From positions 2,496,001-2,560,000 of the forward strand of contig CBDCTH010000012.1 of the NCBI GenBank assembly GCA_965222155.1: a stretch of 64,000 nucleotides of DNA. The letters are read 5' to 3'. Shown piece by piece: positions 4,615 through 43,815 of this stretch (positions within the stretch are counted from its first letter, which is position 1; every line of letters begins with the position of its first letter). The translations under genes were made by a program, and so were the position numbers. The notes under the pieces are model-generated. The model saw nothing but the letters and a program-made list of their open reading frames with translations, did not search any database and was not told the DNA's origin. The stretch comes from Gammaproteobacteria bacterium (lineage in GTDB: Bacteria > Pseudomonadota > Gammaproteobacteria > Eutrophobiales > Eutrophobiaceae).

Positions 4615-5016
4615 TTGTTCCGGTTGGACAAATTTTTAAAAACTCCATATAACAATGCTGTTCCGAACAGGATTGCATTGATACAAACAGGGCTTGCACT
4701 CTGTGCCGGCGCCGTGTTGTTACCGGCGCTGGGCGGTGTCGCGGCCTGCTCGGCCGTCCTTGCGGGTGGTATCAGTGCGCTGTCAACCTGGTATACGGGT
4801 AGAAAGGTGTTCGGCAGCAGGGCGAAGAGCACGCAGCAGTTTGTGAGGAACCTTTACCTGGCGCAATTTATGAAATTATTGCTGGTGATTGCGCTGTTCT
4901 GCATCGTGTTCTCGTCCTTACCGGTCAATTTTCCGGTGTTCGTGATCACCTATGCCGCGACGCTGGCGGTGTACGGTTGGGCCCTGGTGGTAAACGGGCG
5001 GACTGCGCGCGGTTAG
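4615..5016 (+). CDS. atpI: ATP synthase protein I
   Basis: Hydrophobic ~130 aa protein directly before atpB; 'LYLAQFMKLLL' motif; start uncertain. Confidence 0.85.
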   Translation: MFRLDKFLKTPYNNAVPNRIALIQTGLALCAGAVLLPALGGVAACSAVLAGGISALSTWYTGRKVFGSRAKSTQQFVRNLYLAQFMKLLLVIALFCIVFSSLPVNFPVFVITYAATLAVYGWALVVNGRTARG

Positions 5017-5045
5017 CCCGGTAAGAGGATAACAAGGAGAACTGA

Positions 5046-6196
<1,151 letters not shown>

Positions 6197-6201
6197 GCTG
6201 G

Positions 6202-6672
6202 ATGAGCATTAACCTGACCTTGCTCGGCCAGGCGATCTCGCTGTTTATTTTCGTCTGGTTTTGTATGAAATACGTCTGGCCGCCAATCATCAATGCCCTG
6301 CACGAGCGCGAGAAGCGCATAGCCGACGGGCTGGCCGCAGCCGAAGCCGGACAGAATAAACTGGTGGAAGCGGACCAGCGCTTGTCGGAACTGGTCGACG
6401 AGGGTAAACAGCATGCCAATGAGATCATCGCCCAGGCACAAAAACGCGGCAACGAGATACTGGAAGAGGCGAAGCACGCGGCCAGGGTGGAAGGCGAACG
6501 ATTGGTTGAAGCGGCCCATGCCGAGATTGAACGGGAACGTACGCAAGCCAGGGACCAGTTACGACAGGAGGTGGCTGTACTGGCATTGACCGGCGCAGAA
6601 CGGATCCTTATGCGCGAAGTCGACAAAAATGCGCATGACGAAATATTGGCCAGGTTAGGCGCAGAGTTATAA
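6202..6672 (+). CDS. atpF: F0 subunit b
   Basis: [37 protein letters not shown]. Confidence 0.98.
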
Positions 6673-6682
6673 GTTCCGCAAG

Positions 6683-7222
6683 ATGCTTGAGAATTCAACT
6701 ATTGCCAGGCCGTATGCCACCGCCGTGTTTGAGTTGGCGCAGGAAACGGGTCAGGTCGAGGCATGGTCGGCCATGCTGGGGTTACTGGGTGTGCTTACGT
6801 CCGATAAGGATATGCGCCAACTGATCGCCAATCCCAAAGTCAGCCGCCAACAGCTTCAGGACCTTGTTTTCGATGTATGCGGCGCCGGACTCTCCGATCT
6901 CGGGCGCAACCTGGTCAAGCTCCTGGTTGGGGCGGGCCGCCTGCAATACACGGCCAATATAAAAGATCAGTATGAACAGATGCGCGCGGCCGCAGAGGGC
7001 AAAGTGGACGTGGAGGTTGTGACGGCTTATACGTTGGACCGGCAACAACAGGACAGTATTGCCGAACTCATAGCAGGACGCCTGGGTAAACAGGTAAACG
7101 TCATCACTTCGGTTGATGGTTCATTAATCGGCGGGGCTATTCTCCGTGCCGGCGACTCGGTCATAGACGCGTCCCTGCGCGGCCGCTTGACCGAATTGCG
7201 GAATGAACTTGTCCGCAGATGA
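6683..7222 (+). CDS. atpH: F1 subunit delta
   Basis: TIARPYA, LIGGAILRAGDSVIDAS. Confidence 0.97.
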   Translation: MLENSTIARPYATAVFELAQETGQVEAWSAMLGLLGVLTSDKDMRQLIANPKVSRQQLQDLVFDVCGAGLSDLGRNLVKLLVGAGRLQYTANIKDQYEQMRAAAEGKVDVEVVTAYTLDRQQQDSIAELIAGRLGKQVNVITSVDGSLIGGAILRAGDSVIDASLRGRLTELRNELVRR

Positions 7223-7331: not shown

Positions 7332-8873
<1,542 letters not shown>

Positions 8874-8908
8874 CAGGCGGTAACGGGGAATAGACTTGGA
8901 GAAAACAA

Positions 8909-9772
8909 GTGGCAGTAGGTAAAGAAATCCGCACCAAGATCGCCAGTGTAAAAAACACGCAGAAGATCACCAAGGCGATGGAAATGGTAGCCGCAAGCAA
9001 AATGCGCAAGGCGCAGGAACGCATGCGCGCGGCGCGGCCCTATGCCGATAAAATCCGCAACGTGATCGCGCATCTGGGCGCGGCCAACCCTGAATATAAA
9101 CACCCGTATCTCACTCCCCGAGAGAAAATCAAGCGCATCGGGCTGGTGATAATTTCAACCGATCGCGGCCTCTGTGGAGGACTTAATTCAAACCTGTATC
9201 GGGAAGTGCTCGGAAAAATGAAGCAATGGGATGATGCAGGGATCAGTATTGATCTCAGCATCATAGGCAATAAGGCAGTGGGCTATTTCCGGCGGCTGGG
9301 AGCAAACATCGTTGCCCAGACGACCCATATCGGCGATTCACCCGGACTGGATACCTTGATCGGCGCCATCAAAGTGATGCTGGATGCCTACCAGGAACAG
9401 AAAATCGATGAGTTGTATATCGTGTCCAATCAATTCATCAATTCCATGACACAGAGACCGACGGTGGAACAACTGATCCCGATCCGTTCCCTGAGTGATG
9501 ATGAAGTGAAGCATTACTGGGATTACATCTATGAACCCGATGCCAGGGAGGTGCTCGACCAGTTATTGCTGCGTTACGTGGAATCCCTGATTTACCAGGG
9601 GGTAGTGGAAAATATTGCCTGTGAACAGGCGGCCCGTATGGTTGCCATGAAAAGCGCTTCCGATAACGCCGGCACCCTGATTGATGAATTGCAGTTGATT
9701 TATAACAAGGCACGCCAGGCCGCGATTACCCAGGAAATCTCGGAGATCGTCGGCGGCGCGGCTGCTGTGTGA
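8909..9772 (+). CDS. atpG: F1 subunit gamma
   Basis: [42 protein letters not shown]. Confidence 0.99.
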
Positions 9773-9817
9773 GATGGCGTTTTAATAATGTGCCGCCTGG
9801 GGCGGTGAGTTGTTTTA

Positions 9818-9912
9818 CTGGATTCCTGCTTTCGCAGGAATGGTAACCGGGGTATGTGCTGGAATGGCGCAGGTTATTTCCGTCGCCATGCCGGGCTTGA
9901 CCCGGCATCCAG
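9818..9912. repeat. REP/RPE-like palindromes (ATTCC-N-GGAAT type) in the atpG-atpD spacer
   Basis: CTGGATTCCTGCTTTCGCAGGAATG and ATGCCGGGCTTGACCCGGCAT; same units recur near 12316, 15651, 54725 and 54790. Confidence 0.8.
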
Positions 9913-9940
9913 ACTGATGATGTGTCGTCGCAGACGGTAG

Positions 9941-11413
<1,473 letters not shown>

Positions 11414-11417
11414 ACTA

Positions 11418-11790
11418 TAGCCCGTATTTCTCACCAGGTCGCTTGTTGCTATCGGATACATGTTTGCTTTAATGAGTTATGACAACCTTTTGACTATGTC
11501 AACATTACGAACTGCGCTTGATGCGCCCTCGCTTGTCTTTTTTGCGCCAATGGGCATGTGTTCATTGCGCCCATCCCCCTGCTCAACTCCATACAGAGCT
11601 TGCCCCTGCGGTTGTAAGCAGGGGGGCAGGCTCTGGGGCGCAACCCTGCGGGCGGCTGTCGCCGTGCAAATTGTCTGTCCTGACAATTTGTCCCTCAACC
11701 AGAGTCCCAGCTATGCTTTCGGTCGCAGGCACCCATTGGCGCAAAAAATCCGGCGCGATCTTCGCATCACCTGATGAGAAATACGGGCTA
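11418..11790. mobile_element. MITE with 22-bp terminal inverted repeats (TA-flanked) carrying an internal inverted-repeat segment
   Basis: TAGCCCGTATTTCTCACCAGGT ... ACCTGATGAGAAATACGGGCTA; inner IR TTTTTTGCGCCAATGGG (11538-11554) / CCCATTGGCGCAAAAAA (11732-11748); related short copy at 22935-23063. Confidence 0.85.
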
Positions 11791-28773: not shown

Positions 28774-29526
28774 TCACGCGCCTGGGGGTGGCAGCTTTGC
28801 TGCGTTCCGGGTGGCAGCCTTCACGTGAAACGGGTGGCAGGATTCAGTGAAATACGCAGTGAGGGTCTCCAAACTGTCAATCCACTCGCTGAAATGTCTA
28901 CATTTCAATAGCAATGACGACAACCCAATCTTTCCAGCTACAATAGGACCTGCGGATGCCTTCATTTTTTCGTATTCCGGTATTTCCTTGATAATTCGCT
29001 TTGATGGAGGAGTTTTGTCATTAATCAACTCCGGTGAATCGAATTCAGAGACTATTTTAACAAGCTTCTTAATTTGGGTTGCACGGTCGAAAAACTGGGC
29101 ATCAAGTTTTTGAGGGTCGGACAACAATAACGCTTCAGATTCGTAAAGCTGGAAATAGGGAATAAATCGGGAATCAGAGATATCTTCCTTTAACGAATTT
29201 TCCAAAGTCGTGATGCGTTCGTATGGATTGTTTTTTCGTTGGGCGTCTTCATAGCCGGGGAAATCAGTTGGAAGACCATAAAGATCAATCATGGTTGTAA
29301 ATCGTGCATCCGGGTTTTGATCTTCTTTCATCCAGGCTTTAATGTCCTTCTTAACTTGAGCATACTTCCCGATACCTCCCCTATATTTGATTCCCCGTTT
29401 GTGACTCGTCATGACGCATCGAGCCTTCACCCAAATGGACAACTCGGCTAAATGCGGGTTTAGGGTCTGCTTTACAAATGTTTCTTCTGTCTGTCCCTCG
29501 ACGATGAAATGCAGCCTTATCGTCAT
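28774..29526 (-). CDS. DUF4276-family (TOPRIM-like) protein; 3' end reads into IS21
   Basis: FIVEGQTEE, TTMIDLYGLP, PELIND..PSKRI, CRHFSEW. Confidence 0.8.
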   Translation of the reverse strand: MTIRLHFIVEGQTEETFVKQTLNPHLAELSIWVKARCVMTSHKRGIKYRGGIGKYAQVKKDIKAWMKEDQNPDARFTTMIDLYGLPTDFPGYEDAQRKNNPYERITTLENSLKEDISDSRFIPYFQLYESEALLLSDPQKLDAQFFDRATQIKKLVKIVSEFDSPELINDKTPPSKRIIKEIPEYEKMKASAGPIVAGKIGLSSLLLKCRHFSEWIDSLETLTAYFTESCHPFHVKAATRNAAKLPPPGA

Positions 29527-30610
29527 TAAGGACGTCCGCCGATTACATTCTTTTCCCACAATTCAGAAAGAGAATAGTCCTCGAGCCATTCTGCCAGAGC
29601 TTTCGCATCCAGTCTTCTGAAGACAGAACTGCGACCTTCGCGTTCGACAACAACTATATCAGTTGGCCCAAAACAATCGATAAGTGGCATGGATTGCGTA
29701 GCGACAATGACCTGTATTTTAGTCGAAACTGCGTGAATCAAACCGCCGACAACATTAATAGCGTACGGGTGCAATCCAAGTTCCGGCTCATCAAGAATCA
29801 ATACGTCTGGCAGGTCCTGTTCAGATTGCAAGAGAAGTGTAACAAGAGCCACAACTCGCAACATGCCATCCGACGCTTGCGAAACACTGAAAACCTGATC
29901 GCTGTTTCGTTCACGCCAATTCAGAAGAAGAGAGTCGTAATGTGGTTCCAGTTCAAAGTCAGAAAAAAAAGGCAGGATCAGGCGGATAGTATCTACTATG
30001 CGTTGATAGCACCTGCCATTTTCCTCCCTAAGGCGAAGTAATACGGGAGCGACATTGGCAGCATCTTCCTTGAGCCACCGGTTACGCATACGAGCGGTAG
30101 CTGACGTATTATGGAATTGGTACACGACGATTTTTCGCAGTATGTCTCGAATAACTCTAGCGGTTTTATCATCACCAGCATCGATAAGAAGTTGCGGAAA
30201 GCGTTGCCCTGCGTCCGTTTCTCGCCAGGATGCAGTACTAGGGCGTGCTTTGTGGGAGAATCGGTATCGTTCATCGGCAAAAATCAATGTGTCGCCTGCT
30301 GCAAAAATCAACCGGAATGCGTACTGGTTCTCGCCGGCGTCAGTTTGAAGCGTTAATTCGGTTTCTATCTCACGAGTCATAGAAGGGCCGTCGTGCAGAA
30401 ATGTGCTGGCTCCCCCTGCTCGCTAATGTAAAGTTGGATGTTGTCGGGATCCGCCAATGCCCAACTCAGCATACGAAAGAAGGAAATGAAATTGGACTTG
30501 CCAGCGCCGTTAGGGCCGATAAGCAGCGTTAATGGATGAGGCTGGAAACTCTCCAGTGCTTGAATAGTCTTAAACCCTTTGAGAGTTATCGACACAAGCT
30601 TGCTTTTCAT
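29526..30610 (-). pseudogene. AAA_21/ABC-type ATPase, frameshifted at a G5 run
   Basis: IGPNGAGKSN in the first ORF; SDGMLR, LDEPELGLHP, ATQS in the second; adding one G at 30412-30416 gives continuous ...EQGGASTFLHDGPSMTREIE. Confidence 0.85.
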
Positions 30611-30769: not shown

Positions 30770-33700
30770 TCATATTCCTAATTTAGTCTGTATAATATCG
30801 TCATTAGTATAAGTTATATCAAAAACAGTCTCTTGCAGCCAGCGCCGGAAGGAATCGTTATCCATAAACTGCTTGAAAAGCTCCGTGTCGTCCCTGAGTA
30901 AACCGGTTATCACACGGGACAGGGCGTTGTCACATTCGATGCGTGCGTTTTGCCTGTCGGAATTGATCCTGGCGTTTTGGTAAGACGTATCCGTTGCGAC
31001 ACTGATCGGAATTTCCTCGGTAATCAACTTGCGCACGCGGTCTTCATCACTCCACTCTATACCGCCAAACAGTTCATTGAAATTCCTGATGATGTTTGAC
31101 AGGCGGTCAAGCTCAGGTTCCGGTCTGCCGCCTACGCCTGTGGGCGTCGGTTCGATTTCAGCGTCCTCATCCGGTAGTTGAAGCTTCACTGTGGCCTGTT
31201 TTTCGACCAGGTAGCTGTCCATATCGATTGTTTCAAGGATGCCTTTTGAAAGATCCTCTTCGACCGGCGCCGGCAATTTGGGAACCAGGAAGGTAAGAAA
31301 AATAGAGAGTTTTTCCCATTCCAGATGCTTGTATGACAGAATTTGAGAGAGAAAACCATAAGTACGCAGGAATGCCTTGGCCTTGCCTTTAAATTCCACC
31401 TGTCCATCCTCATCGAGGTCTGCCTTATAATTGGCGACACAGGCATCCAGTATCGGGTCGAGCTTGTCACGCGCTGCATTGTTCAGGAATAATGTCACCA
31501 AATCCTCAACCTGTGTGTCTGTATATACCTCACAGGCATCAAGTTCGCCCTTGAGATCGTGCAGCTTATTGGGGTCGGTCTCATCCGCGAGGATGGTGGT
31601 TCGATAGTAGTCGGCAAACGCTTCTTTTATAGTATCCGTGTCATTCATGAAATCCAGAACAAAGACATCGTGCTTCTGTGGGTGGGCGCGATTCAGCCGC
31701 GATAATGTCTGTACTGCCTTGATGCCGGAGAGTAATTTGTCCACGTACATGGTATGCAACAGAGGCTCGTCGTATCCGGTCTGGAACTTGTCTGCGCAGA
31801 TCAAGATTCGGTAAGGGTCTTCCTGTATCCTGTCAACAATCTTAGCGGATGAGAATCCATTCAGGGATGCCTCACTGACTTTTGCGCCTCCATACTCATG
31901 CTCGCCGGAAAAGGCAATAATCGCCCGGTACCGGCTTTTGCGCTCAGTCAGGTAGTCGGAAACGGCATGGAAGTATTTTATTGTGCGGTCAATACTGCCC
32001 GTCACCAGCATGGCCCGCGCCTTTCCGCCGATCTTGCCAGGGGCCAGCACCTGGTCGTGGAAGTGATCCACCATAATCTCCGCCTTCAGGCGGATAGCGT
32101 GTTCGTGGCCTTCGACATAACGGCGTAGCTTCTTCTGCGCCCGGCGGCTATCGAACATCGGGTCATCTTCAATTTTCTTGACCAGCCAGTAGTAGCTGGA
32201 AACCGGCGTGTAGTGGCGCAGCACGTCCAGGATGAAACCCTCCTGGATGGCCTGCTTCATGGTATAGCTGTGGAATGGGAGATGCCGCACTGCGCCGTCC
32301 GGTTGTGGCTGCGGTATTCCAAAAATTTCCAGCGTCTTGTTCTTGGGCGTGGCAGTAAAGGCAAAGTAACTGGCGTTGGGGAGTAGCTTTTTGGACTCAA
32401 TGAGGCGGTTGATACGATCTTCTACGGTTTCATCGTCATCCTCTTCCCCGGCTTCGGAAAGAGCCTGCGCCAGGGCCGAGGAAGTACGTCCTCCCTGGCC
32501 CGAATGCGCTTCGTCAATGATAATGGCAAAATTTCGCCCACGGTGTGTGTCACTTATTTCATCAAGGATGAACGGGAACTTCTGAACCGTGGAAATGATG
32601 ATCTTTTTGCCTTGCTCAATGAACCCGCCCAGGTCACCTGAAGTGTTGGCGTGCCCCACCGTGGAACCTACCTGAGCGTATTGTCTGATGGTGTCGCGAA
32701 TTTGTTTATCCAGGACGATGCGGTCGGTCACTACGATGATCGAGTCAAAAATCGAAGTGTCGTTCTTTTCCAGTCCGATTAGTTGGTGTGACAGCCAGGC
32801 GATGGAATTTGACTTGCCGCTGCCTGCTGAGTGTTGGATCAGATAGCGCTGTCCCGCGCCTTCGGCGCTGGCATCGTCCAGAAGTTTACGTACTACGTCC
32901 AGTTGATGGTAACGCGGCCAGATCTGGGTTTTCTTCTTCTGTCCGGTCTTTTCATCCTTTAAGATCACCACTTGGGCATAGTTTTCGATGATGTTTGTCA
33001 AGCTTTCCCGTGCCAAAATCTGTTTCCACAGATAGTCAATCTTGAGGCCGTTGGGGTTGGGGGGATTGCCGGCGCTATCGTTCCAGCCCTTGTTGAAAGG
33101 CAGGAACCATGATGCCTTGCCCTTCAAGTGAGTACAGAACTTTATTTCCTGTTCATCTACGGCAAAATGCGCCACACAGCGGCCAAATTTGAACAACTTT
33201 TCGTTCGGGTCGCGGTCACGCCGGTATTGTTGAACTGCATCTTCAACCGTCTGCTTTGTCAGGTTGTTCTTCAACTCAAAGGTGATTACCGGCAAACCGT
33301 TGATGAAGAGCCCGAGGTCAAGCGAGTTTTGCGTATTTGCGCGGCTGTAACGCAACTGCCTGGTAACCGAAAAACGGTTCATTCCGTATCGTGCTGAGGC
33401 TCGCTCATTGCCCGGTGACGGAGTTCCGTAAAACAGGCCGAAATGGTGCGCGCCGTGATTAATGCCCTTATGCAAAACCTCTATAATGCCGCGGTTGGTA
33501 ATTTCACGTTCCAGTCTTGCAAGGAACTTGCGCCGCGCCGGACCGTCTTCATCAAGAGAAAGGGAACCGGCAGTCTCGGGCTGTGTTGCGTGCAGGAAGG
33601 TGGAGAGTTGCTCCAGGTCTGTGCAGTACTCACGATCGTAGTCGTTCGGAGAACCGCAGATCCAGCCGATGCCACCGTATGGAACCCTTGTTTTTCCTAT

Positions 33701-33835
33701 TTCATCGAAAATTACTTGCTTTCGGGTCGGCGGGATTTCCGTTAGCGTATTATCCCTAGGCGGGTCACAGGGATGACCCGTCAGCGCGGCGCATATTATT
33801 CTTTCCAGACCGCGCTCAGTGGTGTCGGTAGTCAT
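30770..33835 (-). CDS. hsdR: Type I restriction endonuclease subunit R
   Basis: DLGLFINGLP..FELK nuclease motif, QHSAGSGKS, DEAH, FTATPK, KFQTGYDEP, QTLSRLNR. Confidence 0.96.
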   Translation of the reverse strand: MTTDTTERGLERIICAALTGHPCDPPRDNTLTEIPPTRKQVIFDEIGKTRVPYGGIGWICGSPNDYDREYCTDLEQLSTFLHATQPETAGSLSLDEDGPARRKFLARLEREITNRGIIEVLHKGINHGAHHFGLFYGTPSPGNERASARYGMNRFSVTRQLRYSRANTQNSLDLGLFINGLPVITFELKNNLTKQTVEDAVQQYRRDRDPNEKLFKFGRCVAHFAVDEQEIKFCTHLKGKASWFLPFNKGWNDSAGNPPNPNGLKIDYLWKQILARESLTNIIENYAQVVILKDEKTGQKKKTQIWPRYHQLDVVRKLLDDASAEGAGQRYLIQHSAGSGKSNSIAWLSHQLIGLEKNDTSIFDSIIVVTDRIVLDKQIRDTIRQYAQVGSTVGHANTSGDLGGFIEQGKKIIISTVQKFPFILDEISDTHRGRNFAIIIDEAHSGQGGRTSSALAQALSEAGEEDDDETVEDRINRLIESKKLLPNASYFAFTATPKNKTLEIFGIPQPQPDGAVRHLPFHSYTMKQAIQEGFILDVLRHYTPVSSYYWLVKKIEDDPMFDSRRAQKKLRRYVEGHEHAIRLKAEIMVDHFHDQVLAPGKIGGKARAMLVTGSIDRTIKYFHAVSDYLTERKSRYRAIIAFSGEHEYGGAKVSEASLNGFSSAKIVDRIQEDPYRILICADKFQTGYDEPLLHTMYVDKLLSGIKAVQTLSRLNRAHPQKHDVFVLDFMNDTDTIKEAFADYYRTTILADETDPNKLHDLKGELDACEVYTDTQVEDLVTLFLNNAARDKLDPILDACVANYKADLDEDGQVEFKGKAKAFLRTYGFLSQILSYKHLEWEKLSIFLTFLVPKLPAPVEEDLSKGILETIDMDSYLVEKQATVKLQLPDEDAEIEPTPTGVGGRPEPELDRLSNIIRNFNELFGGIEWSDEDRVRKLITEEIPISVATDTSYQNARINSDRQNARIECDNALSRVITGLLRDDTELFKQFMDNDSFRRWLQETVFDITYTNDDIIQTKLGI

Positions 33836-34331
33836 ATGAAACACCAGTCAAATGGCAAGACCCCTTATTTGCCAACGCGTTACTCGGCTCGAACACAATA
33901 ATTGTCAAATCGCTGAATTGCTCCAGTATCTTCTCAATACGCGGACGTACTTCAAACCAATCCAATCCTCCCAGTCCGCAGCCCAAAGCTGGTCTGGCAA
34001 TCGAGCAAATGTTGTATGACCGGATTTCTTCTACCAGCGCAATAAGACCGGCGTCAATGTACTCCATTCGGCTCTTGTCGCGCCAATGACGTTTAGTTGG
34101 AAAGTTGATGATATATTGCGGATTCGTCAGTTGACCTGTTTCGTATACAAACATTCGCCCAGGTTTTATTTCTTTTCGCTTGCAAGCTGCGGAGTAGGAC
34201 TTGAAGTTATCGGGAAAGACTTTTTTGAACTGAAGCGCCATACCGCGCCCCATGATACCAACACAATTGACGGTATTGACCAAGGCTTCAGCATCTTCGG
34301 TGAGGATGTCACCTGTCTTGAGATCGATCAT
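33816..34331 (-). CDS. Macro-domain protein (DarG-like ADP-ribosylglycohydrolase domain only)
   Basis: ALVNTVNCVGIMGRGMALQFK, IINFPTKRHWR, ALGCGLGGLDW. Confidence 0.88.
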   Translation of the reverse strand: MIDLKTGDILTEDAEALVNTVNCVGIMGRGMALQFKKVFPDNFKSYSAACKRKEIKPGRMFVYETGQLTNPQYIINFPTKRHWRDKSRMEYIDAGLIALVEEIRSYNICSIARPALGCGLGGLDWFEVRPRIEKILEQFSDLTIIVFEPSNALANKGSCHLTGVSYDYRHH

Positions 34332-34410: not shown

Positions 34411-35799
34411 TCAGCCCGATTGTAGTTCCGGTTTGTCGGCGATACTCAACTCGTCATGGGCTTCCGGTAGTTTAAATGCCGCCTCACGCACGTCAAGTTT
34501 ACCGGTAACTACGTCGGCAATCAGGCGGGTGCGGTATTCTTGCAAGAATTCGATTTGGCGTTGGGTAGCGCTGACAGCAGCTATGAGTTGTTCCGTCTGA
34601 GCCCAAGTTTCAGTAAGAATACGTTGCTGTTCTGAAATATCAGGCAAAACAATCTTAAAGTTGCGAATTGAGTCCAATGTAAGTCCTTCACGGGATGCTC
34701 CATTTTGTTCAAAATGTATCTCGCGTTGCATAAAGGTGGTAGACAAGTATGATGCCAAAAAGCCAGACAGCAGACGATTCTTCTTGGGTCTGATGATGCA
34801 AACGTGTTGACTCACATTGCCTTCTCCAAAATCGCTGGGAACAGAACAGACACGCCCAATAGAAGCCCCAGTTATATTCAGTAGAACATCATCCGATTTC
34901 ACATGCGTATTTGAGAGTGTTTGATGAAGCCTCGGTGTTATTCGAGCAACATCTTCAAGGCGAAGTCCGTCAAAATAGACATTCTGACTTCGGAGGAATG
35001 GAATTCCAGTATTTTGATATATGGTTGCTCCACCACGAGGAGTAACGCCGCTACCGAACTTCGTTGCCAGATAACGTAGCGCAATCACCTCCCAATGCGC
35101 CGGCACATCGCCGAGCCACTCGACCCCGGAGGGATTGAGGCGAACATTTGGGTCGAGCCCCCGGGTTACTGCACGATGGATGACGACCTGTCGTTGCTCC
35201 TCTAGTAGGTTGATGAGCTGCTCTTTGGCGTTGATGTGGCTGCGGATGTGTTCGGTAGCATGCTTGAGATAACGAACAATAGCGTTTTGTTCGGGGAGGG
35301 GTGGAACAAGACAAGGTAGATACTGGAAATCGCGCCAATTCAGATTCTGCCGTAGACCTGAACCCAAGCCATAGAATATTTTCTTGAGATCATAGGTATG
35401 GAGCAATAGGTGTCCATATTCACGCGATATTATTCCTCTTGTGTGGAAACACATATAAGCTGAGGTGATAGCCCCATGATGACGACTCAGGCCAAAACGA
35501 AGGCTAGTCCAGTCATTCTGTAAATCTGTCGGCCGAATAATTATATCGCCCGGTTCAATCACTTGGTATGTTTCAAAAGAAGCAGGAACTAGTCCGTGAT
35601 GTTGCTCAACCGGTTTGATTACGATTTGTCCATAGCTCAAGGAAAGAATCGTTGTTTCTTGCATACCGGTATTTGGTGATTTTTTTTCGTAATAACAGGC
35701 TCTACCAGGTAACAGCTCCCAATGTGCTGGTATGTCACCCAGCCATTCAACGCTGGAAGGTTTATACGCAGGGTAGGGTGTAGGTTTCAACGATTTCAA
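34411..35799 (-). CDS. hsdS: Type I R-M specificity subunit
   Basis: Repeated PSxVEWLGDxPAHW spacers, PPLPEQ, EYRTRLIADVVTGKLDVR; two TRDs. Confidence 0.95.
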   Translation of the reverse strand: MKSLKPTPYPAYKPSSVEWLGDIPAHWELLPGRACYYEKKSPNTGMQETTILSLSYGQIVIKPVEQHHGLVPASFETYQVIEPGDIIIRPTDLQNDWTSLRFGLSRHHGAITSAYMCFHTRGIISREYGHLLLHTYDLKKIFYGLGSGLRQNLNWRDFQYLPCLVPPLPEQNAIVRYLKHATEHIRSHINAKEQLINLLEEQRQVVIHRAVTRGLDPNVRLNPSGVEWLGDVPAHWEVIALRYLATKFGSGVTPRGGATIYQNTGIPFLRSQNVYFDGLRLEDVARITPRLHQTLSNTHVKSDDVLLNITGASIGRVCSVPSDFGEGNVSQHVCIIRPKKNRLLSGFLASYLSTTFMQREIHFEQNGASREGLTLDSIRNFKIVLPDISEQQRILTETWAQTEQLIAAVSATQRQIEFLQEYRTRLIADVVTGKLDVREAAFKLPEAHDELSIADKPELQSG

Positions 35800-37265
35800 T
35801 CCCGCATGAATGATTGGGATAACTCGATCAACCCGGAAAGACGAGTAATAGTGTCTTTTGAAAAATCATTAACATAGAAGTCATGCCCGGGATATTCGCT
35901 GGGAAAAGAGGACAGGGTGTTTATTCTTTGTATGTCTGATTTTTGGGTCCGTTCAGACAGGTAAGGCGTGTGGGGTGTTTTCTGTTCATTTTTTAAGTTG
36001 TCATGTAAGCGTTCTAATTCATCCAGAGATCTACTACTATTTTCATGTGTTGCCCTATCTGCTAGATATAAACGGATTTCTAATTCGTTGAAAATGGGTT
36101 CTGACTCTCGAAGCCGGTTTTCAAGGAAAGCCAATTCGTCAATATAGTTCATTACCTCACTGCCGGTCCGGTCACCTCTGATGTATTCCTGATAAAGAGT
36201 TTTGTTCTTCAAGCGCAGGATTATCAACAGCGGGTGAAGTAGTTGAGTCATAGGAGAATGTGTCGTAGCGTTTTTTCCGATAAAAACAATCATCCGTACA
36301 CAGTAATCAATATCGCGGAGTGATAAACCGAAATAACCGCATAACGCTTGGAAGAATCTGTTGAATTCTTCAAAGCCATGGTAATAAGGCCCGGGTTCTG
36401 TACTTCTACACAGACTGATATAGAGATGTTCCAGTTGGTATCGTTTAATCAGATATTCGTAGAAGGCTTTTGAGTCTATGTCCGGCAGCAAAAACTCCAT
36501 GTCAAAGAAACGTCGGAGGTAGGTGTCCGCGTCGATTTCGCCATAGACTGACCCGATGGACGAACGCAACTCGTCGCGGTTGATCCCGAATACAAAAACC
36601 ATATCAGGAATATCAAAGATATGTTTGACTCGTTCAAGCAATTCGATGGCGAAGGTCGGGCGGCACCGGTCCAGTTCATCAATGATGAAAACCAGGGGAT
36701 GTTTGGTGTCTGCCTTTACCTGTCCCGATAATTCTTGCAATGCTGTTTTGAGTTCAGTCTTTTTTTCTCTTTGCTGTGAATACTCATCCAAAGTCTTGTC
36801 TGCGAATTGTTCCAGAATTTCGTCGATGTTCAGACCGCTGACCTTATGCAAGATACTCAGAGCGCCTTGAATTAGCAGAGATTTTGTGGCCTCCTTGATT
36901 TTATCGTCTAACCCTTCAATCCCTTTTTGTTTTATAAAATCGGACAGTTGGCCAATAATTGCAACGAATGGGTCATCGCAGAAATCATCTTCCCAGGCGT
37001 TGAAATAGATAGCCCGAAAGCCGCCTTTTTCCAACTGCTTTTGCCATCGTTTAAGCAGGAACGTCTTGCCCGTTCCCCAATGTCCGTGCAGGCTGATAAC
37101 GAATGGGTCAGATTGCCCGCTGATAAGTTTCGTCAGTTTTTCAGCGACATCAGATCGTTTCAGTGCGTCATCTGCCCACGGGTTATCCTCCTGAATTGCC
37201 GGTTCGGATAACTTCAATCGAAGCGATTCTTTCAGGTCTTGGGCATCTGACAGGTTGTCGTTCAT
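35796..37265 (-). CDS. KAP-family P-loop NTPase
   Basis: ISLHGHWGTGKT, FNAWEDDF, FIIDELDRCRP, YLRRFFD. Confidence 0.92.
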   Translation of the reverse strand: MNDNLSDAQDLKESLRLKLSEPAIQEDNPWADDALKRSDVAEKLTKLISGQSDPFVISLHGHWGTGKTFLLKRWQKQLEKGGFRAIYFNAWEDDFCDDPFVAIIGQLSDFIKQKGIEGLDDKIKEATKSLLIQGALSILHKVSGLNIDEILEQFADKTLDEYSQQREKKTELKTALQELSGQVKADTKHPLVFIIDELDRCRPTFAIELLERVKHIFDIPDMVFVFGINRDELRSSIGSVYGEIDADTYLRRFFDMEFLLPDIDSKAFYEYLIKRYQLEHLYISLCRSTEPGPYYHGFEEFNRFFQALCGYFGLSLRDIDYCVRMIVFIGKNATTHSPMTQLLHPLLIILRLKNKTLYQEYIRGDRTGSEVMNYIDELAFLENRLRESEPIFNELEIRLYLADRATHENSSRSLDELERLHDNLKNEQKTPHTPYLSERTQKSDIQRINTLSSFPSEYPGHDFYVNDFSKDTITRLSGLIELSQSFMRD

Positions 37266-37287: not shown

Positions 37288-38904
37288 TCAGGGCTGAATG
37301 TTAAAATGCTCGGCAATAGCGTCCAATTTTTCGACCACCTCAGGATGTATTTCCTCTTCTTTCATCTCTGCCGCAATTTGGTGATAATCACTTTTTTTAA
37401 TGTTAATTTCTGCCTCTTGCATAAGATTGGAGAGCAATTTTTTTCCCTTGGTATCCCGCAGAAAGGCAGTGGTTTTAAATGGATCATTATATACCGTCAA
37501 GGGCAGCTCCTTTTTCATATAATCATCTACTTCGCACGCTACGTTTGTTCCCTTATTTTTTTCTACAAAACAAATAATGGCCTTAGGGTGGATAAGATAG
37601 TTTTCGATTTCATAACGCTGCCAACACAGACTTTTCATGCCGTCAGGGAGCGAACCGCCCCTAGCGTCCTGGTCGCCATCCCGTAACTCCACTCCTCGAA
37701 AATCTGGACCGACCAAACGCATGGAACTGAAATGACTTAATGGGAACCCGTTCTTGCCCCCCTCTTCTGCGGTCCAACGCCAGAAGGGTCTTTCCAGGAA
37801 TGACAACAAGGGATGCCCCAGTATCCGCGCCCACTCCCTGAGTATGTCAATGTCTGTTTTTCCTTCCACGTATAAAATGCCGGGTTCAGTCAGGGCAAGC
37901 ATCATTTCCGTGTTCTCCAACAGGCGTAAAGTCCCTATCGCTTGCTGGCTACTCACTTTCCGCAATTCGCCGATACTTGTCAACACGCACAGGCTTTCTT
38001 TATCGGCAGCATTGATAATCTGCTCTGAGTGCGTCGCAATAATCAATTGTGACCCTTTCTGGAGGGCATATTCGCGCAAATCCTGATATATTTTCTGCTG
38101 CAACAGAATATGCAAATGTGCATCCGGTTCGTCGATAAGAACTACAGACACATCTTCGTGCAATAAGCTGGCGTAAACCATCAAAACTTGCAGAAAACCG
38201 CTTGCCGCGCTATTCAGTTCATACAGTTGATCTTCTTCTGAATGTCGGTAACGCGCGAGTATTTCTGCACCAGCGCTGGGAATTGATAGCTCGTAACCGA
38301 AAAAAGACCTGACGACTTTTTGTAATTTTTCCCATTTTTTTATGTCCTGACTGACGGCAAGAAGCAGGTTGCGTAATACGCTACCCCCACGCCCTCCTGC
38401 CAGTCGCGCTGGGACTACGCCGGGACCAAACAGGGGTTCACTCCTGTCCAGTTGAGAAAAGGGTGGTATGTAAACAGGTATGAGGGGATTATCAATATAT
38501 TTCTCCAAATCCTCCTCTTGGACCTCTTTTGCAGGACGTGCGACAACTAATTCTCTTTCCGCGTATAAAATTTCGAAACCTATTTTCCAGTGGTCGGTAT
38601 GTACCCAGATAGATGCGGGAGATGTTACGTCCTTATCTTTCCAAAGATAATCGAAATCAGCCAGGGGTACTGAATAGAATTTTTCTATGTTGAGGTTGAT
38701 TTTTGGGTAATTCTCGTCCTGCTCTCGCGCCAGATCCGGGCTTTTCTGGCTCCATTGAGAAGCAATTTCCGAACAGGCTGCAATGGCTTGCAACACTGTG
38801 GTTTTGCCGGAATTGTTCGGTCCCGCAATGACGAGATGATGAGGAATTTCGAATTCCACTTGATCGAATTTCTTGATGCTACGAATCTTGACTTTGCGGA
38901 TCAT
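37288..38904 (-). CDS. ABC-ATPase-TOPRIM fusion (OLD-like ATP-dependent nuclease)
   Basis: Walker A GPNNSGKT, ASG signature, LIDEPDAHLH, IIATHS; TOPRIM LYVEGKTD...DGD; EIENYL. Confidence 0.85.
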   Translation of the reverse strand: MIRKVKIRSIKKFDQVEFEIPHHLVIAGPNNSGKTTVLQAIAACSEIASQWSQKSPDLAREQDENYPKINLNIEKFYSVPLADFDYLWKDKDVTSPASIWVHTDHWKIGFEILYAERELVVARPAKEVQEEDLEKYIDNPLIPVYIPPFSQLDRSEPLFGPGVVPARLAGGRGGSVLRNLLLAVSQDIKKWEKLQKVVRSFFGYELSIPSAGAEILARYRHSEEDQLYELNSAASGFLQVLMVYASLLHEDVSVVLIDEPDAHLHILLQQKIYQDLREYALQKGSQLIIATHSEQIINAADKESLCVLTSIGELRKVSSQQAIGTLRLLENTEMMLALTEPGILYVEGKTDIDILREWARILGHPLLSFLERPFWRWTAEEGGKNGFPLSHFSSMRLVGPDFRGVELRDGDQDARGGSLPDGMKSLCWQRYEIENYLIHPKAIICFVEKNKGTNVACEVDDYMKKELPLTVYNDPFKTTAFLRDTKGKKLLSNLMQEAEINIKKSDYHQIAAEMKEEEIHPEVVEKLDAIAEHFNIQP

Positions 38905-39259
38905 GTCTGTTTGTCTCCGGTACAAAAATTGGTGGCGCCTCACTCCATACAATGTGCCCATGCCTCAGCCAGTAATGACACCGGCAAGCCAAGCCAGTGA
39001 CATGCACTGATGGCGATAAGGATATGAGGCCGTCCGGGTGCTCTGTTATACGCCATTTTTTGCGCACGTCAGGTGATACGTCCAGGTGTACAACCTGCTG
39101 GCAAGCCTGACGGGGACAAACAATGGCCGCATAGAACGGATATTCACGTCCACCAACGATATACACTGTGTTTTTAGCGGGATTCTCAGGCAGATCTTCT
39201 ACCCACTCAGTACGATAAGGATGAAATCGCGCCCATAAATTGAATAACCATCTAATCAT
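38879..39259 (-). CDS. DUF6527-like Cys/His protein of ubiquitination-like operons
   Basis: CPRQAC...W...SLSPSV...CRCHYWLRHGHIVW; overlaps both neighbours. Confidence 0.75.
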   Translation of the reverse strand: MIRWLFNLWARFHPYRTEWVEDLPENPAKNTVYIVGGREYPFYAAIVCPRQACQQVVHLDVSPDVRKKWRITEHPDGLISLSPSVHVTGLACRCHYWLRHGHIVWSEAPPIFVPETNRHDPQSQDS

Positions 39260-40646
39260 TGTTGATATTGTTTTTTACGAGCAAGCTCTTGTCACCTGTT
39301 CCTGCATATCGTTTCAACAATGAATGCGGCTTGCCTGTGTCCGTGTCTTTTTCATAACATCCATGCACCAGGCGAAACCGCTGGGTACCGAACTCATGAT
39401 TGTCGTCAAAACGGTAGGTATGAATTCGGGCCAGAAAATCATTAAACGCCATGCAGGCTGCCTGCATATTAATCGACATTACGGCGGGCTGTTCTTCGCC
39501 CACCGCTGCCAGGTATCCGGCTGCCTGCTGCCCCTGGTAGTGCTCCGGAGCGTTTCTCTGCCAGTTTTCGGCTGTGACCTGCTCCATAGTATATGCACCG
39601 CGTGATAGTAAGCTATCGCCTTCCGGATGGATGAAGTGCGAGACCGCATCGGCGCTTGTAATGTCCCCTGTGCCATCGGCCTCAAGGTGTACCCCAACGT
39701 CGAAATACGGAATCAGGTAAGCGCTCGCCAGACAATCCAGGTGGTACCTGCCAAAGGCTGAATCCACACAACCGAAAATGACATCGCAATCTATCAATGC
39801 TGCAACAACATCAGGTGAATCTGTTAAAGCCTGGTAGGTATCTACATCGGTTCCCATTCCGATTTTCTGAATTGCTTGTTTGAGGGCTGAAACCTTGGGT
39901 TGTCGCTTTTTGGCGCCCTCCGTAGTACTGTTGACAATTCGATTCAGGTTTTTTTCTTCCAGCGTATCACTGTCCGCAATGACCAACTCTCCCACACAAT
40001 TACGCGTCAACAACTCAATGATGATACTCCCGGTTCCGGAACATCCGACGACTCCCACCTTCAAGGAACGCAGTAAATTCAAAGTTTTGCTGCCGAAAGT
40101 CTGCGACAATTTTCTTTGATATGCCGATGTTTTTCTTTTTCCCCCCTGCTTCCAGATACGAATGGTGTTACCGACCACAGAAACAGACGCCAATTCGAAA
40201 AACTTTCCATTGACATCCACTATTCGCGCCCGGATTGTGCCATCGGGCATCATTATAGCTGACCCGTTCAGGCGATCATCGTCGAACCAGTTGCAAACTG
40301 ACGCAAATAACTCCCGGTCGTTTTGGTCGTCAATCTCTGAAAACATTTCATATCCATTTGGGTGAGAATGAATGGTTACTACGGACTGACCGCGTCGATC
40401 AATATCACTGATCTTTTCCGGTGTCAGGTAATCTTCAAAAGGCCACGATATAAACCTGTCCTTTCTTTGTGACCGATTGTGGGGCAGACACAAAATTTCC
40501 GAAACGATGAGGCGCTGGCGGTGCTTCCCTGACCCCTGGTTGCAGAGCAAAACAGCGGCTGCTTCCAGCCCATCACCCGGGAAAAGATATTCGAAAACCG
40601 TCTCATGGCGACGTTCAGTCATCACCAGTGAGACGGGTTTCATCAC
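39252..40646 (-). CDS. JAB peptidase - E1/ThiF adenylase fusion (BubCD-like)
   Basis: LEAAA...IHSHP.....FSEIDD JAB motif; GCSGTGS, DSDTLEEKNLNR, GCVD ThiF motifs; no CxxC pairs. Confidence 0.9.
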   Translation of the reverse strand: MMKPVSLVMTERRHETVFEYLFPGDGLEAAAVLLCNQGSGKHRQRLIVSEILCLPHNRSQRKDRFISWPFEDYLTPEKISDIDRRGQSVVTIHSHPNGYEMFSEIDDQNDRELFASVCNWFDDDRLNGSAIMMPDGTIRARIVDVNGKFFELASVSVVGNTIRIWKQGGKRKTSAYQRKLSQTFGSKTLNLLRSLKVGVVGCSGTGSIIIELLTRNCVGELVIADSDTLEEKNLNRIVNSTTEGAKKRQPKVSALKQAIQKIGMGTDVDTYQALTDSPDVVAALIDCDVIFGCVDSAFGRYHLDCLASAYLIPYFDVGVHLEADGTGDITSADAVSHFIHPEGDSLLSRGAYTMEQVTAENWQRNAPEHYQGQQAAGYLAAVGEEQPAVMSINMQAACMAFNDFLARIHTYRFDDNHEFGTQRFRLVHGCYEKDTDTGKPHSLLKRYAGTGDKSLLVKNNINND

Positions 40647-41761
40647 TTTACCTCGTTTTCTATCTCGTTTCTAATGTGCTCAATATGTTTCCAAAGGCAA
40701 TCTTCGCCCGGTTTCCATTCATAATGCCGGGACCAGCGTTGCCAGGTCCGACCGAAATGGTCTTCAGAAGCCAGTGCGTTAATTGTTGCGCCATTCGATT
40801 TGTGGAGTGGCGGATCAAAATAAAACATGTCTAACGCCGAACCGGGATAACCACTTGGAATGAGCACCATCAATGTGGCCTGCGCCATAGTGTAGCCGTC
40901 TGGAACAGGAAATACCCTGATAAGCAAGCCGTGTTTCCCGTTACCCTCTGTTATTTTCTCCCACTTGGAGAAATAATTTGCTTCCAGATATTCAGTATCT
41001 TCCGGCAGTAATTCATAAGGGCCGACATCACCTTGTTGCGCTTGTCGCCGGACAGTTTCAAAGCGTTCAATACCTGGCTGCGCCAAATCAACCTTCGTAT
41101 TAGCCTCGATTCTTTCTCTTTTACCACCACACAACTTCTGATTAAGAGACCACTCGCCGAAACTTTTTTCAACTAACGCTAAAATGTTGACCCCGGTGAT
41201 TTCTGCGGAGTCCACGGTGTGTTTTTCACCATCAATACGGATGCGATATTTTCTTACTTTGGGTGGGCGGCGATTGTGTTTTCCGCATTTTTCGATATCA
41301 ATTGAGTCGTCATCATCGTCGGCAGGGGGAATGACGAAGTATGAATCCTTATCCTGGATAACAATGATCATGTCGTCCGGAATCTCCACGTCAACACTGT
41401 CTTTTATATCAGCAAACAACCGTCCATCGGGAAATTTGTCATCTCGTTCTTTAAGAGCTTTGCCACTGATTTTTGCAGTTGATAACTCTAAATCGTGAGA
41501 ACCATTAAACTCCGGCTGCACGCCATTACGCAATCGCGGGTTATCTTCGATAGAACTTTCCCCAGTCACGAACTTTTCCCCGCCATGGATAAGCAGGTAT
41601 TCCTCGGGCAAGAGAGGGATATCTATACCGTCTTCCCGGTTCAAAAAAATCCGATTTTCACCGCAATCGGCGATTTCATAAAGTGTTGCGACAGAAACAA
41701 GTCCTGCGTGAACCTGTTGTTCTTGACCGTTGATTTGAACGTTCATTTTCATGATCTCCAT
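40643..41761 (-). CDS. Multi-ubiquitin-like domain - E2/UBC-like fusion (BubA-BubB-like)
   Basis: About three beta-grasp-like repeats ending RRQAQQG (G244), then an E2 family-E-like domain (IPSGYPGSALDMFYF, WQRWSRH). Confidence 0.85.
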   Translation of the reverse strand: MEIMKMNVQINGQEQQVHAGLVSVATLYEIADCGENRIFLNREDGIDIPLLPEEYLLIHGGEKFVTGESSIEDNPRLRNGVQPEFNGSHDLELSTAKISGKALKERDDKFPDGRLFADIKDSVDVEIPDDMIIVIQDKDSYFVIPPADDDDDSIDIEKCGKHNRRPPKVRKYRIRIDGEKHTVDSAEITGVNILALVEKSFGEWSLNQKLCGGKRERIEANTKVDLAQPGIERFETVRRQAQQGDVGPYELLPEDTEYLEANYFSKWEKITEGNGKHGLLIRVFPVPDGYTMAQATLMVLIPSGYPGSALDMFYFDPPLHKSNGATINALASEDHFGRTWQRWSRHYEWKPGEDCLWKHIEHIRNEIENEVK

Positions 41762-41865: not shown

Positions 41866-42222
41866 ATGAGCAATGAAATAGACAAAAATTTTGCACAGAG
41901 ATTGATAAAGTCTCGACAAATCAGGGGGTTAAAGCAGGCAGATCTAGCCAGGAACGCGGGCATTCCTCCCTCGGCAATTTCCCATTTTGAGGCAGGAGAA
42001 CGAAAACCTTCTTTTGAAACCCTACACCGCCTTGCAGAAGCGCTGGGCGTCACTATAGATTTTCTTCTTGGTAGAATTGATGAGACGGAAGGACTTGCAG
42101 ATGCCGACCCCCTCTATCGCGGCTTCCAGGAAATGAATGATGAAGACAGAAAGCTGACCCAGGATTTTATGGAAATGCTGAGGAATCGGCATTCAGGAAC
42201 GCAGAATGACGAAAACAAATAA
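41866..42222 (+). CDS. XRE HTH repressor (CapH/ImmR-like)
   Basis: LKQADLARNAGIPPSAISHFEAGERKPSFETL; divergent from the Ubl operon; overlaps the peptidase gene. Confidence 0.88.
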   Translation: MSNEIDKNFAQRLIKSRQIRGLKQADLARNAGIPPSAISHFEAGERKPSFETLHRLAEALGVTIDFLLGRIDETEGLADADPLYRGFQEMNDEDRKLTQDFMEMLRNRHSGTQNDENK

Positions 42223-43037
42223 TTATCCTGTTATTCGGGCCAAGGCAAAAGAATTAATTACCCGGTTTGGAATAACAGAACTGCCGGTAAACCCTTTCGA
42301 GATTGCGCATAAACTTGATATCCAAACTCATCCCAAACCCTCGAACCAGAAAGGCGGAATATCCGGGGCGCTGGTCAGAAGCGGCAATAATTTCGGTATT
42401 TTATACGCTACCAATATTCCTAACATCGGTTACCAAAGATTTACCGTAGCACATGAAATCGGACATTACGTACTGGGCGGGCACATGGACCATTTGCAAT
42501 TGAAAGATGGCCATATTCATTACTCGAAAGCGGGATTCCACGGAGATAAATATGAGAGAGAAGCTGATTATTTTGCTGCTCAATTACTTATGCCGGATAC
42601 CCTGTTTACCAAGGCGTTGGCTACCAATGAAGATGGCATGAACGCGATAAAAAACCTTGCTGATAAGTGTCAAACCTCTTTGACTGCGACAGCAATACGC
42701 TACGTTGAGAAAACGGATTCCGTATCGGTAGTTGTAGTAAGTGAGAAGGACAGAATACTATATGCTTTTTTTTCCAGTGAGATGCATAGATTCAGACTGG
42801 ACTACCCAAGGAAAAATTCACCATTACCGGACACTTCATTAACTTCTGAAATCAATCGTGATGAAGTCTCTTTGCGTGAAGGAGAGGCTGATACAAACAT
42901 TGATGATTGGTTTGAAAGCGATTTTGACCTGGAATGCGTATTTCACTGAATCCTGCCACCCGTTTCACGTGAAGGCTGCCACCCGGAACGCAGCAAAGCT
43001 GCCACCCCCAGGCGCGTGATGACGTGGGTGTTGGTCA

Positions 43038-43796
43038 TTATGACTCTGTTGGGGTCATCGTCGTCAATGTTTTTTTCTGTTTTCGCATGGATTCACCCTT
43101 GAGTTGTATTTTGTAAGCATTATGCACCAGGCGGTCAAGGATGGCATCGGCGAGGGTGGGGTCGCCGATGCTGTGATGCCATTTTTCGGCCGGTAATTGA
43201 CTGGTAGCGAGGGTGGAGCGTGCGCCGTGGCGGTCTTCCAGGATTTCCAGCAGGTCACGGCGCTGCTCTGCGTTCAATTTGACCAGGCCCCAGTCATCGA
43301 GGATGAGGGCCTGGGTTTTTGCCAGGGTGGTGAGGAGCTTGGGATAGCGTCCATCGCCCTTGGCGATGGACAGGTCCTGGAGGAGTCTGGGCAGGCGCAG
43401 GTAGAGGGCGGTGTAGCCGTGCCGGCAGGCGTTGTGTGCCAGGGCACAGGCGAGCCAGGTTTTGCCGACGCCGGTGGGGCCGGTGATGAGGATATTGAGG
43501 TGTTCGCGGACCCACTGGCAGGTGGCCAGTGATTGCATCAGGGATTTATCCAGTCCGCGCGGGTGGCGATAGTCGATATCCTCCAGGGTGGCATTGTGTT
43601 TGAGGCGGGCGCATCGCAGCCGGTTGGACAGGCGTCGGTTGTCCCGTTCGGTTATCTCCCGGTCGACGAGCAGGCCGAGGCGTTCCTCGAAGCTGAGGGT
43701 ATCGATATCGGGCACGGACATCTGCTCGGTGAGGGCGGCAGCCATACCGGTGCATTTCAAGGTCTGGAGTTTGTCCAGGGTGGGATGTATCAACAT
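43038..43796 (-). CDS. istB: IS21 helper ATPase
   Basis: [25 protein letters not shown]. Confidence 0.96.
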   Translation of the reverse strand: MLIHPTLDKLQTLKCTGMAAALTEQMSVPDIDTLSFEERLGLLVDREITERDNRRLSNRLRCARLKHNATLEDIDYRHPRGLDKSLMQSLATCQWVREHLNILITGPTGVGKTWLACALAHNACRHGYTALYLRLPRLLQDLSIAKGDGRYPKLLTTLAKTQALILDDWGLVKLNAEQRRDLLEILEDRHGARSTLATSQLPAEKWHHSIGDPTLADAILDRLVHNAYKIQLKGESMRKQKKTLTTMTPTES

Positions 43797-43815
43797 AGCA
43801 GTCTCCTGTCGTGGG

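Follow-up and report, generated by a model that had tools for sequence, protein, structure and literature searches.

A probable Type I Bub operon encoding a ubiquitin-like–E2 pre-protein in a gammaproteobacterium, and relatives in which the fusion is split next to the junction glycine

The window, the whole stretch of DNA that was analysed, comprises 64,000 nucleotides of a gammaproteobacterial genome (assembly GCA_965222155.1, contig CBDCTH010000012.1, positions 2,496,001 to 2,560,000), and all coordinates given here are positions within it. Its minus strand carries a set of genes resembling the Bub (bacterial ubiquitination-like) operons described by one laboratory (PMC11601596, PMC11601603), formerly known as 6E or DUF6527, with Type I formerly 6E.1/DUF6527. 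The first gene, bubAB, encodes a ubiquitin-like protein (Ubl) and an E2-like domain in a single open reading frame (ORF). It is followed by bubCD and bubE, successive genes whose stop and start codons overlap. These genes and the parts of bubAB are as follows; pLDDT is the predicted local distance difference test score of the AlphaFold2 model described below.

40643–41761, minus strand: bubAB, an intact ORF for a pre-protein of 372 residues with three Ubl domains and an E2 (Ubl3-E2; Pfam Multi_ubiq and Prok-E2_E), stop codon at 40643–40645
41552–41758, minus strand: beta-grasp domain 1, residues 2–70 (AlphaFold2 model and VIA-align)
41324–41533, minus strand: beta-grasp domain 2, residues 77–146 (VIA-align)
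41303–41329, minus strand: acidic stretch PPADDDDDS, residues 145–153, between domains 2 and 3 (sequence)
41033–41260, minus strand: beta-grasp domain 3, residues 168–243, the part predicted to be activated by E1 (Pfam and VIA-align)
41030–41032, minus strand: codon GGT for G244, the predicted C-terminus of mature Ubl and predicted JAB cleavage site, between G and D (conservation, split homologues and pLDDT)
40646–41023, minus strand: BubB E2 domain, residues 247–372, with D311, S344 and H346 (PDB match and VIA-align)
39252–40646, minus strand: bubCD, a JAB/JAMM peptidase joined to an E1 adenylation domain, 464 residues (Pfam Prok-JAB and ThiF)
38879–39259, minus strand: bubE, a DUF6527 protein of 126 residues (Pfam DUF6527, E 1.3e-14)

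Pfam assigns Multi_ubiq to residues 172–236 of the bubAB product (E 1.6e-11) and Prok-E2_E to residues 251–369 (E 8.9e-33), while neither BubAB nor BubE is covered by a PADLOC model. The start of bubAB is ambiguous among ATG codons at M1, M4 and M6, and homologues are often 367–369 residues long, so that the junction glycine, numbered G244 here, may be residue 239–244 of the true product. A first-pass annotation, made from the sequence alone, had described an acidic string, a glycine-terminated motif and an E2-like domain directly after it. PPADDDDDS was indeed located at residues 145–153 and RRQAQQG ends at G244, with D245 next; the E2-like domain is recovered both as Prok-E2_E and as a UBC fold whose residues 247–372 match BubB.

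The closest characterized system is the Type I Bub operon of Citrobacter, for which the PDB entries 9ea4, 9ea8, 9eae and 9eav served as reference structures. It shares with the present locus all three genes and their order, both fusions (Ubl3-E2 and JAB-E1), a conserved glycine at the junction and the catalytic residues of E2, E1, JAMM and BubE. The BubB domain matches Citrobacter BubB (9eav_D) in sequence at E 1e-18 and is 37–40% identical to BubB in structure alignments; BubCD matches Citrobacter BubCD (9ea4_A) at E 1.2e-72 over residues 7–455. Residue correspondences, counted by hand along HMMER alignments with PDB tag offsets allowed for, are these:

JAB: E28 and D104 in Citrobacter; E28 and D106 here (with H93, H95 and S103)
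E1 (adenylation arginine and crossover-loop tyrosine): R227 and Y370 in Citrobacter; R236 and Y378 here
E2: D299, S333 and H335 in Citrobacter; D311, S344 and H346 here

For BubE, the S84/H95 dyad was matched to Citrobacter S92/H102 by spacing only. On these alignments, all of the published catalytic residues are present at the locus. Their conservation was followed in 57 related loci, L001 to L057, drawn from species-representative genomes of which many are metagenome assemblies. Residues E28, H93, H95, S103, D106, R236 and Y378 of BubCD do not vary in any of the 54 rows (a count made without L002, L042, L047 and L056, which have fewer than 400 aligned residues). In the E2, all 58 rows have S344 and H346, and 56 of them have D311. 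This E2 has no conserved cysteine, C355 being the only one in the domain and not conserved among homologues; an invariant serine with histidine and aspartate is found instead. BubE keeps S84, H95, C48 and C92 in all 51 rows, C53 in 50 and C94 in 49, the four cysteines being the putative zinc ligands of this family. BubE also has an N-terminal extension (residues 7–24) in which N7, Y15, W19, E21 and L23 are shared by all 29 rows; a conserved FVPE.N motif lies at the C-terminus (residues 109–117). The extension is described in the preprint text only as hydrophobic; conservation of the two terminal motifs suggests a putative binding site.

For Citrobacter sp. RHBSTW-00271, it is reported that BubAB is cut directly after G229 by whole BubCD as well as by the isolated JAB domain, as established by Edman sequencing, that the JAB mutants E28A and D104A are inactive, that the Ubl is carried as an oxyester first on E1 Y370 and then on E2 S333 with the aid of H335 and D299, and that BubE (S92/H102) strips conjugates (PMC11601596). 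The first-pass proposal for the present locus, that JAB must cut after G244 to expose a C-terminal glycine, coincides with this published mechanism, and the locus is homologous to the Citrobacter operon through both BubB and BubCD. We consider it very probable that ORF 40643–41761 encodes the BubAB pre-protein of a Type I Bub operon and that JAB cuts it after G244. The JAB/JAMM domain of BubCD would thereby free a Ubl of 244 residues, with three beta-grasp domains and the ending AQQG, and an E2 of 128 residues. The E1 domain of BubCD would adenylate G244 and load the Ubl onto Y378 as an oxyester, the E2 would accept it on S344 with the aid of H346 and D311, and the Ubl would then be handed to target lysines, to be removed again by BubE (S84/H95) and probably by the JAB domain. 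The biological role is probably defence or stress response.

Sequence searches of the PDB with the Ubl part alone did not find Citrobacter BubA at E <= 10 and returned weak matches, the best being Ubl3 of the Escherichia coli ZDHYS365 system at E 2.9e-4. Because there was no sequence match to BubA, the fold had to decide the identity of the Ubl. An AlphaFold2 model of BubAB, built on an alignment of 74 fused homologues, has a mean pLDDT of 89.9 and a predicted template modelling score (pTM) of 0.63. The only stretch of the model with pLDDT below 50 is residues 241–246, the junction between Ubl and E2. Among Foldseek matches of BubAB, 9d5a, a multi-ubiquitin protein of Citrobacter, ranks first (E 2e-10, 245 columns); BubAB also matches the multi-ubiquitin protein of E. 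coli ZDHYS365, 9cd2 (E 2.5e-9), and Citrobacter BubB, 9eae_C (template modelling score 0.88 on the target, root-mean-square deviation (rmsd) 1.2 A, 40% identity).

Alignment of individual segments with VIA-align gave a consistent picture. Residues 2–70 match the beta-grasp folds of ISG15 and talin F0 (Z 7.5–8.1, rmsd 1.9–2.5 A, 62–68 residues aligned), residues 77–146 match 9d5b_A, a multi-ubiquitin protein of M. brachiatum (Z 10.5, rmsd 1.9 A, 69 aligned), and residues 171–254 match Citrobacter BubA(155–229), 9ea8_B (Z 9.9, rmsd 1.7 A, 74 aligned). For residues 247–372 the match is Citrobacter BubB, 9eae_C (Z 19.8, rmsd 1.4 A, 124 aligned), followed by the TSG101 UEV domain and E2 enzymes at Z 7–9. 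BubAB is thus modelled as a UBC-fold domain preceded by three domains of the beta-grasp type. The structure prediction that had been proposed as a check therefore finds an N-terminal region folded as beta-grasp domains. The three repeats described in the first-pass annotation hold as structural repeats, seen by AlphaFold2 and VIA-align, but not as sequence repeats, since Pfam detects only the third. Homologues differ in the length and make-up of the acidic stretch that joins domains 2 and 3, with P145, D155 and E157 conserved, and in the present protein the stretch is confidently modelled (mean pLDDT 88 and 92 in the two ten-residue blocks that cover it).

An earlier remark that multi-domain bacterial Ubls oligomerise agrees with the report that three-domain Ubls form Ca2+-dependent dimers and filaments, with Ca2+ site 1 at the end of domain 2 made up of Citrobacter carbonyls 143 and 145 and E147 (PMC11601603). 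Here all 74 fused rows carry D107 and D124, and D139 is almost invariant (D107 and D139 are also invariant in 26 of 26 rows). Picked by conservation, D107, D124 and D139 are candidate Ca2+ ligands.

Of 2461 candidates in a protein search with BubAB, 307 qualified as homologues at E <= 1e-5. The best 120 of these 307 include 76 fused proteins of about 365–410 residues and 44 stand-alone Ubls, 39 of which terminate exactly two residues past the glycine. Within the same 120, the junction pattern could be matched in 110 proteins (ten were unmatched), and the four residues ending at the glycine are AQQG in 107 and AQYG in three. G244 is invariant in 26 of 26 rows and in 74 of 74 rows of fused homologues. 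The residue after it is variable in fused proteins (E in 19, D in 13, S in 8, F in 8, Q in 5, and others), a pattern that suits a peptidase reading the Ubl side of the bond.

The 57 related loci divide into 18 with a fused bubAB, among them the nearest relative, L001, and 39 split ones (L015–L022 and L027–L057). A BubCD homologue comes next in all 57, and a recognisable bubE ORF is present in 51. Split relatives have the same proteins in the same order as the locus in the window, and the AQQG motif in most cases, but encode Ubl and E2 as separate genes in place of a single ORF; their Ubl part is 31–75% identical to the one described here (41–75% in the three-domain forms, L015–L053). The tail of the split Ubl past the glycine is two residues long in 19 loci and absent in nine, with one residue in two loci, three in two, four in one, five in four, seven in one and nine in one. 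In the junction DNA of 18 split loci, E2 homology begins 0–7 residues (about 20 nt) past the glycine codon, and the E2 gene mostly starts with ATG, GTG or TTG 1–2 nt past that codon, as in ...GGC C ATG ATT... or, where the Ubl terminates at the glycine, GGT TGA ATG. These junctions lie near locus position 6717–6750, and the separate bubA and bubB genes often overlap. At the junction, a shift of roughly one base in reading frame separates the fused from the split forms.

On a quick maximum-likelihood tree of BubCD with 54 rows, the fused or split state requires five changes, at least three of which are forced by branches with a Shimodaira–Hasegawa-like approximate likelihood ratio (SH-aLRT) of at least 95. 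Shuffled labels require 15.2 changes on average, and none of 500 shuffles needed as few as observed. In evolution, then, bubA and bubB are repeatedly cut and rejoined next to G244, as would be expected of halves that work as distinct proteins. According to the text of PMC11601596, all Type I Bub operons are fused; as far as the content of the two Bub preprints could be compared, the natural split forms go beyond it, and they provide independent support for G244 as the cleavage site.

These observations bear on two other explanations. One is that BubAB is never cut, the beta-grasp domains being a permanent module of the E2 with no conjugation through G244. It would accord with an E2 that lacks a conserved cysteine, C355 included, and the cut in this BubAB is itself deduced from a homologue; but the AQQG motif in 107 of the 110 motif-bearing proteins, the disordered junction in the AlphaFold2 model, the natural splits adjoining the glycine, and the cleavage and conjugation published for the homologous Citrobacter system (PMC11601596) all speak against it, and we regard it as highly improbable. 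The other, to which we give equally little credence, is that two genes were merged into the single ORF by a one-base error, an artefact of sequencing or assembly. A single-base frame shift at the junction is about all that separates the two forms, and many of the relatives come from metagenome assemblies; yet 18 of the 57 independent species-level loci and 76 of the 120 best database matches show this fusion in frame and keep the conserved residues of the linker, and L001 is fused likewise.

The split loci also test the suggestion, made with the original prediction of a cut at G244, that cleavage could act as an activation switch. In nine of the 39 (L021, L022, L027, L051, L052, L054, L055, L056 and L057) the Ubl already ends at the glycine and needs no trimming, yet the full JAMM site is kept in all eight of these that could be scored (L056 was unscored). 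The cut is therefore no universal control point, and the switch proposal finds no support; release of the halves in equal amounts follows trivially from the fusion. It also follows that JAB must have a further role, which the analogy to other bacterial systems suggests is most likely deconjugation. The same eight loci might be taken to favour a different division of labour, in which BubE is the main protease maturing the fusion and JAB only removes Ubl from targets, as might the invariance of BubE S84, H95 and C92 in 51 of 51 rows and the reported cleavage of a BubA-GFP fusion by BubE. Against this, Citrobacter BubCD or JAB alone cuts BubAB and JAB mutants do not, and the Citrobacter BubE reaction needed 48 h and was "extremely weak" (PMC11601596). 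We judge maturation mainly by BubE to be unlikely, and retain JAB as the protease that would cut after G244.

Citrobacter Type I Bub, for all its likeness, differs from the present locus in that the BubA parts share no recognisable sequence similarity, and in that here the clade has a fourth, overlapping ATPase gene and capP is broken by an insertion sequence (IS). Membership in Type II Bub is ruled out by architecture. The E. coli ZDHYS365 system (9cd2) likewise has a Ubl with three beta-grasp domains and a DUF6527 gene, but its E2 is fused to E1 and such systems usually lack a JAB peptidase, whereas here E2 is fused to Ubl and JAB to E1 (PMC11601603). Bil and the Cap2/Cap3 proteins of Type II CBASS also employ E1, E2 and JAB machinery in defence contexts, with JAB exposing or recycling the C-terminus, but they are described as using cysteine thioesters and have another gene arrangement (PMC11601596, PMC11601603). 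Membership in Bil is ruled out, as the E2 has no conserved cysteine and the JAB is fused to an E1 with a single adenylation domain that is nearest to BubCD. In eukaryotes, polyubiquitin and ubiquitin-ribosomal protein fusions are processed by deubiquitinases that free the Ubl at its C-terminal glycine; in the precursor described here, by contrast, the Ubl is joined to its cognate E2, and the peptidase forms one protein with E1. Close relatives of the operon, 50–90% identical, occur in metagenome-assembled genomes of many phyla (Latescibacterota, Nitrospirota, Rhodothermota, Thermodesulfobacteriota, Gemmatimonadota and Bdellovibrionota, with Alpha- and Gammaproteobacteria). The mixing of phyla in the BubCD tree, together with this level of identity across phyla, indicates horizontal spread. 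A plasmid match to BubCD (H1) was dropped because its annotation was too sparse.

Upstream of bubAB, and divergent from it, lie genes of the capH and capP families, the second of which is interrupted:

41866–42222, plus strand: capH-like helix-turn-helix (HTH) repressor gene (PADLOC capH, E 1.6e-22; Pfam HTH_3), divergent from bubAB
42206–42934, plus strand: 5' part of a capP-like M78 metallopeptidase gene, codons 1–243 (PADLOC capP, E 8e-55)
42935–45493, minus strand: IS21-family element of 2559 bp inside capP, with istA at 43816–45357 and istB at 43038–43856
45495–45623, plus strand: 3' remnant of capP, its last 43 codons, matching residues 242–284 of the L001 homologue (tblastn, 88% identity, E 9.5e-20)

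The longest ORF for capH begins at 41812, and homologues align from its residue 19. The capP-like product matches CapP in the PDB (7t5t_A) at E 6.3e-14. The IS element has perfect terminal inverted repeats of 12 nt (42935–42946 and 45482–45493) and CCTGGAA on both flanks; the family name is our own reading of the istA/istB-like ORF pair and not a tool assignment. Both families of the pair are matched, but capP is split after codon 243, so the pair is not intact. A capH/capP pair is reported beside 168 of 544 Bub operons (PMC11601596), and the 57 relatives include eight with a CapH match, six with a CapP match and five with both. A scan of the intergenic region between bubAB and capH found five consensus-like promoters and no inverted repeat, and identified no operator.

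The state of capP is one of several points that weigh against a working BubAB pre-protein matured by JAB in this organism. Its interruption may leave the operon of this genome uninducible; if CapP is needed to lift repression by CapH, the operon may be locked off. The correspondences to Citrobacter residue numbers were counted by hand. The Ubl region bears little sequence resemblance to Citrobacter BubA, and the match is through the predicted fold. Cleavage and chemistry of this BubAB, along with its targets and biological role, we infer by analogy with the Citrobacter homologue. Since slow cleavage of BubA-GFP by BubE is also reported (PMC11601596), which protease matures BubAB in this organism is likewise something that we infer.

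The Bub cassette is placed between hsdM and hsdS of a type I restriction locus, and positions 28774–49852 of the window form a defence island inside that locus. Its other members are:

28774–30380: AAA_21 and DUF4276 pair
30770–33844: hsdR
33816–34331: DarG-like macro domain gene
34411–35799: hsdS
35796–37265: KAP NTPase gene, PADLOC type PDC-S20
45646–46686: PsyrA/DprA-like gene
46683–47315: UDG-like gene
47319–47588: Abi_2 fragment
47858–49852: hsdM

Immediately downstream of bubE is a further gene:

37288–38904, minus strand: OLD-nuclease-like ABC ATPase, 538 residues counted from M20 of a 557-residue ORF (37288–38961; Pfam AAA_21 and AAA_15)

This gene most likely starts at M20 (38904), so that it shares 26 nt with the 3' end of bubE. 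A homologue 35–70% identical occurs in 36 of the 57 related loci (L001–L018, L020, L022, L028–L030, L032–L043 and L052), and its start codon (ATG, GTG or TTG) overlaps the end of bubE by 4–26 nt in 30 of the 33 loci where this could be measured; in the exceptions, L015, L032 and L040, the match is partial or distant from bubE. The AlphaFold2 model of the ATPase has a pLDDT of 90.5. Its top Foldseek match is the OLD nuclease 6p74 (E 7.5e-14), and it aligns over its full length to this and to Gabija GajA; the ATPase head aligns with PtuA by VIA-align at Z 20–22. An ABC-ATPase head is shared with OLD nucleases, Gabija GajA, the PtuA of Septu and retrons, and PARIS AriA. In the C-terminal 270 residues Pfam gave nothing below E 0.1, with no match for the last 200, a profile of 33 homologues matched only ATPase motifs in the PDB, and the VIA-align match covered residues 1–328 only. 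E347, D351, D409, E432 and E434 are invariant in that region, and Atlas offers DUF4435 (0.93) and OLD-like_TOPRIM (0.90), so that a Toprim or DUF4435 nature of the C-terminus is a lead.

Among 400 genomes of the same class, 13 contain 17 other homologues of the ATPase (24–42% identical), with no bubE or bubCD within their 1.5-kb flanks. As the family is also free-standing, an obligate partnership between Bub and the ATPase was rejected. A complex prediction for the ATPase with BubE scored 0.00 against a mark of 0.32, was run without controls, and is evidence in neither direction. In loci lacking the ATPase, a ResIII-helicase-like ORF of about 920–970 residues often starts at the end of bubE, as confirmed in four of the four tested:

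L021, locus positions 8774–11674
L027, locus positions 4370–7126
L044, locus positions 8832–11696
L053, locus positions 8630–11416

L046 and L050 have a similar large ORF at the bubE end, judged by size only. The helicase-like ORF may be an alternative fourth gene, just as the ATPase may be the fourth gene of this Bub clade. Neither PMC11601596 nor PMC11601603 mentions ATPase, Toprim, nuclease or effector in its main text, and the literature searched, by title and abstract, showed no link between the known OLD, GajA, PtuA or AriA classes and a Ubl operon.

Release of a Ubl, at a glycine, from a fusion with its own E2 by a peptidase fused to E1 has been in print since November 2024, and in this respect the locus adds an example of a Bub system and not a new concept. 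A bolder possibility, which we hold tentatively and think rather doubtful, is that Bub in this clade is a four-gene unit in which the ATPase, translationally coupled to bubE, is an effector of conjugation or its regulated target, and that switching between fused and split forms shows cleavage to be an evolutionary convenience, securing co-expression in equal amounts, instead of a switch. If true, such a unit would tie ubiquitin-like tagging in bacteria to a defence output of the nuclease type. The conserved OLD-like ATPase could point to the output of Bub pathways.

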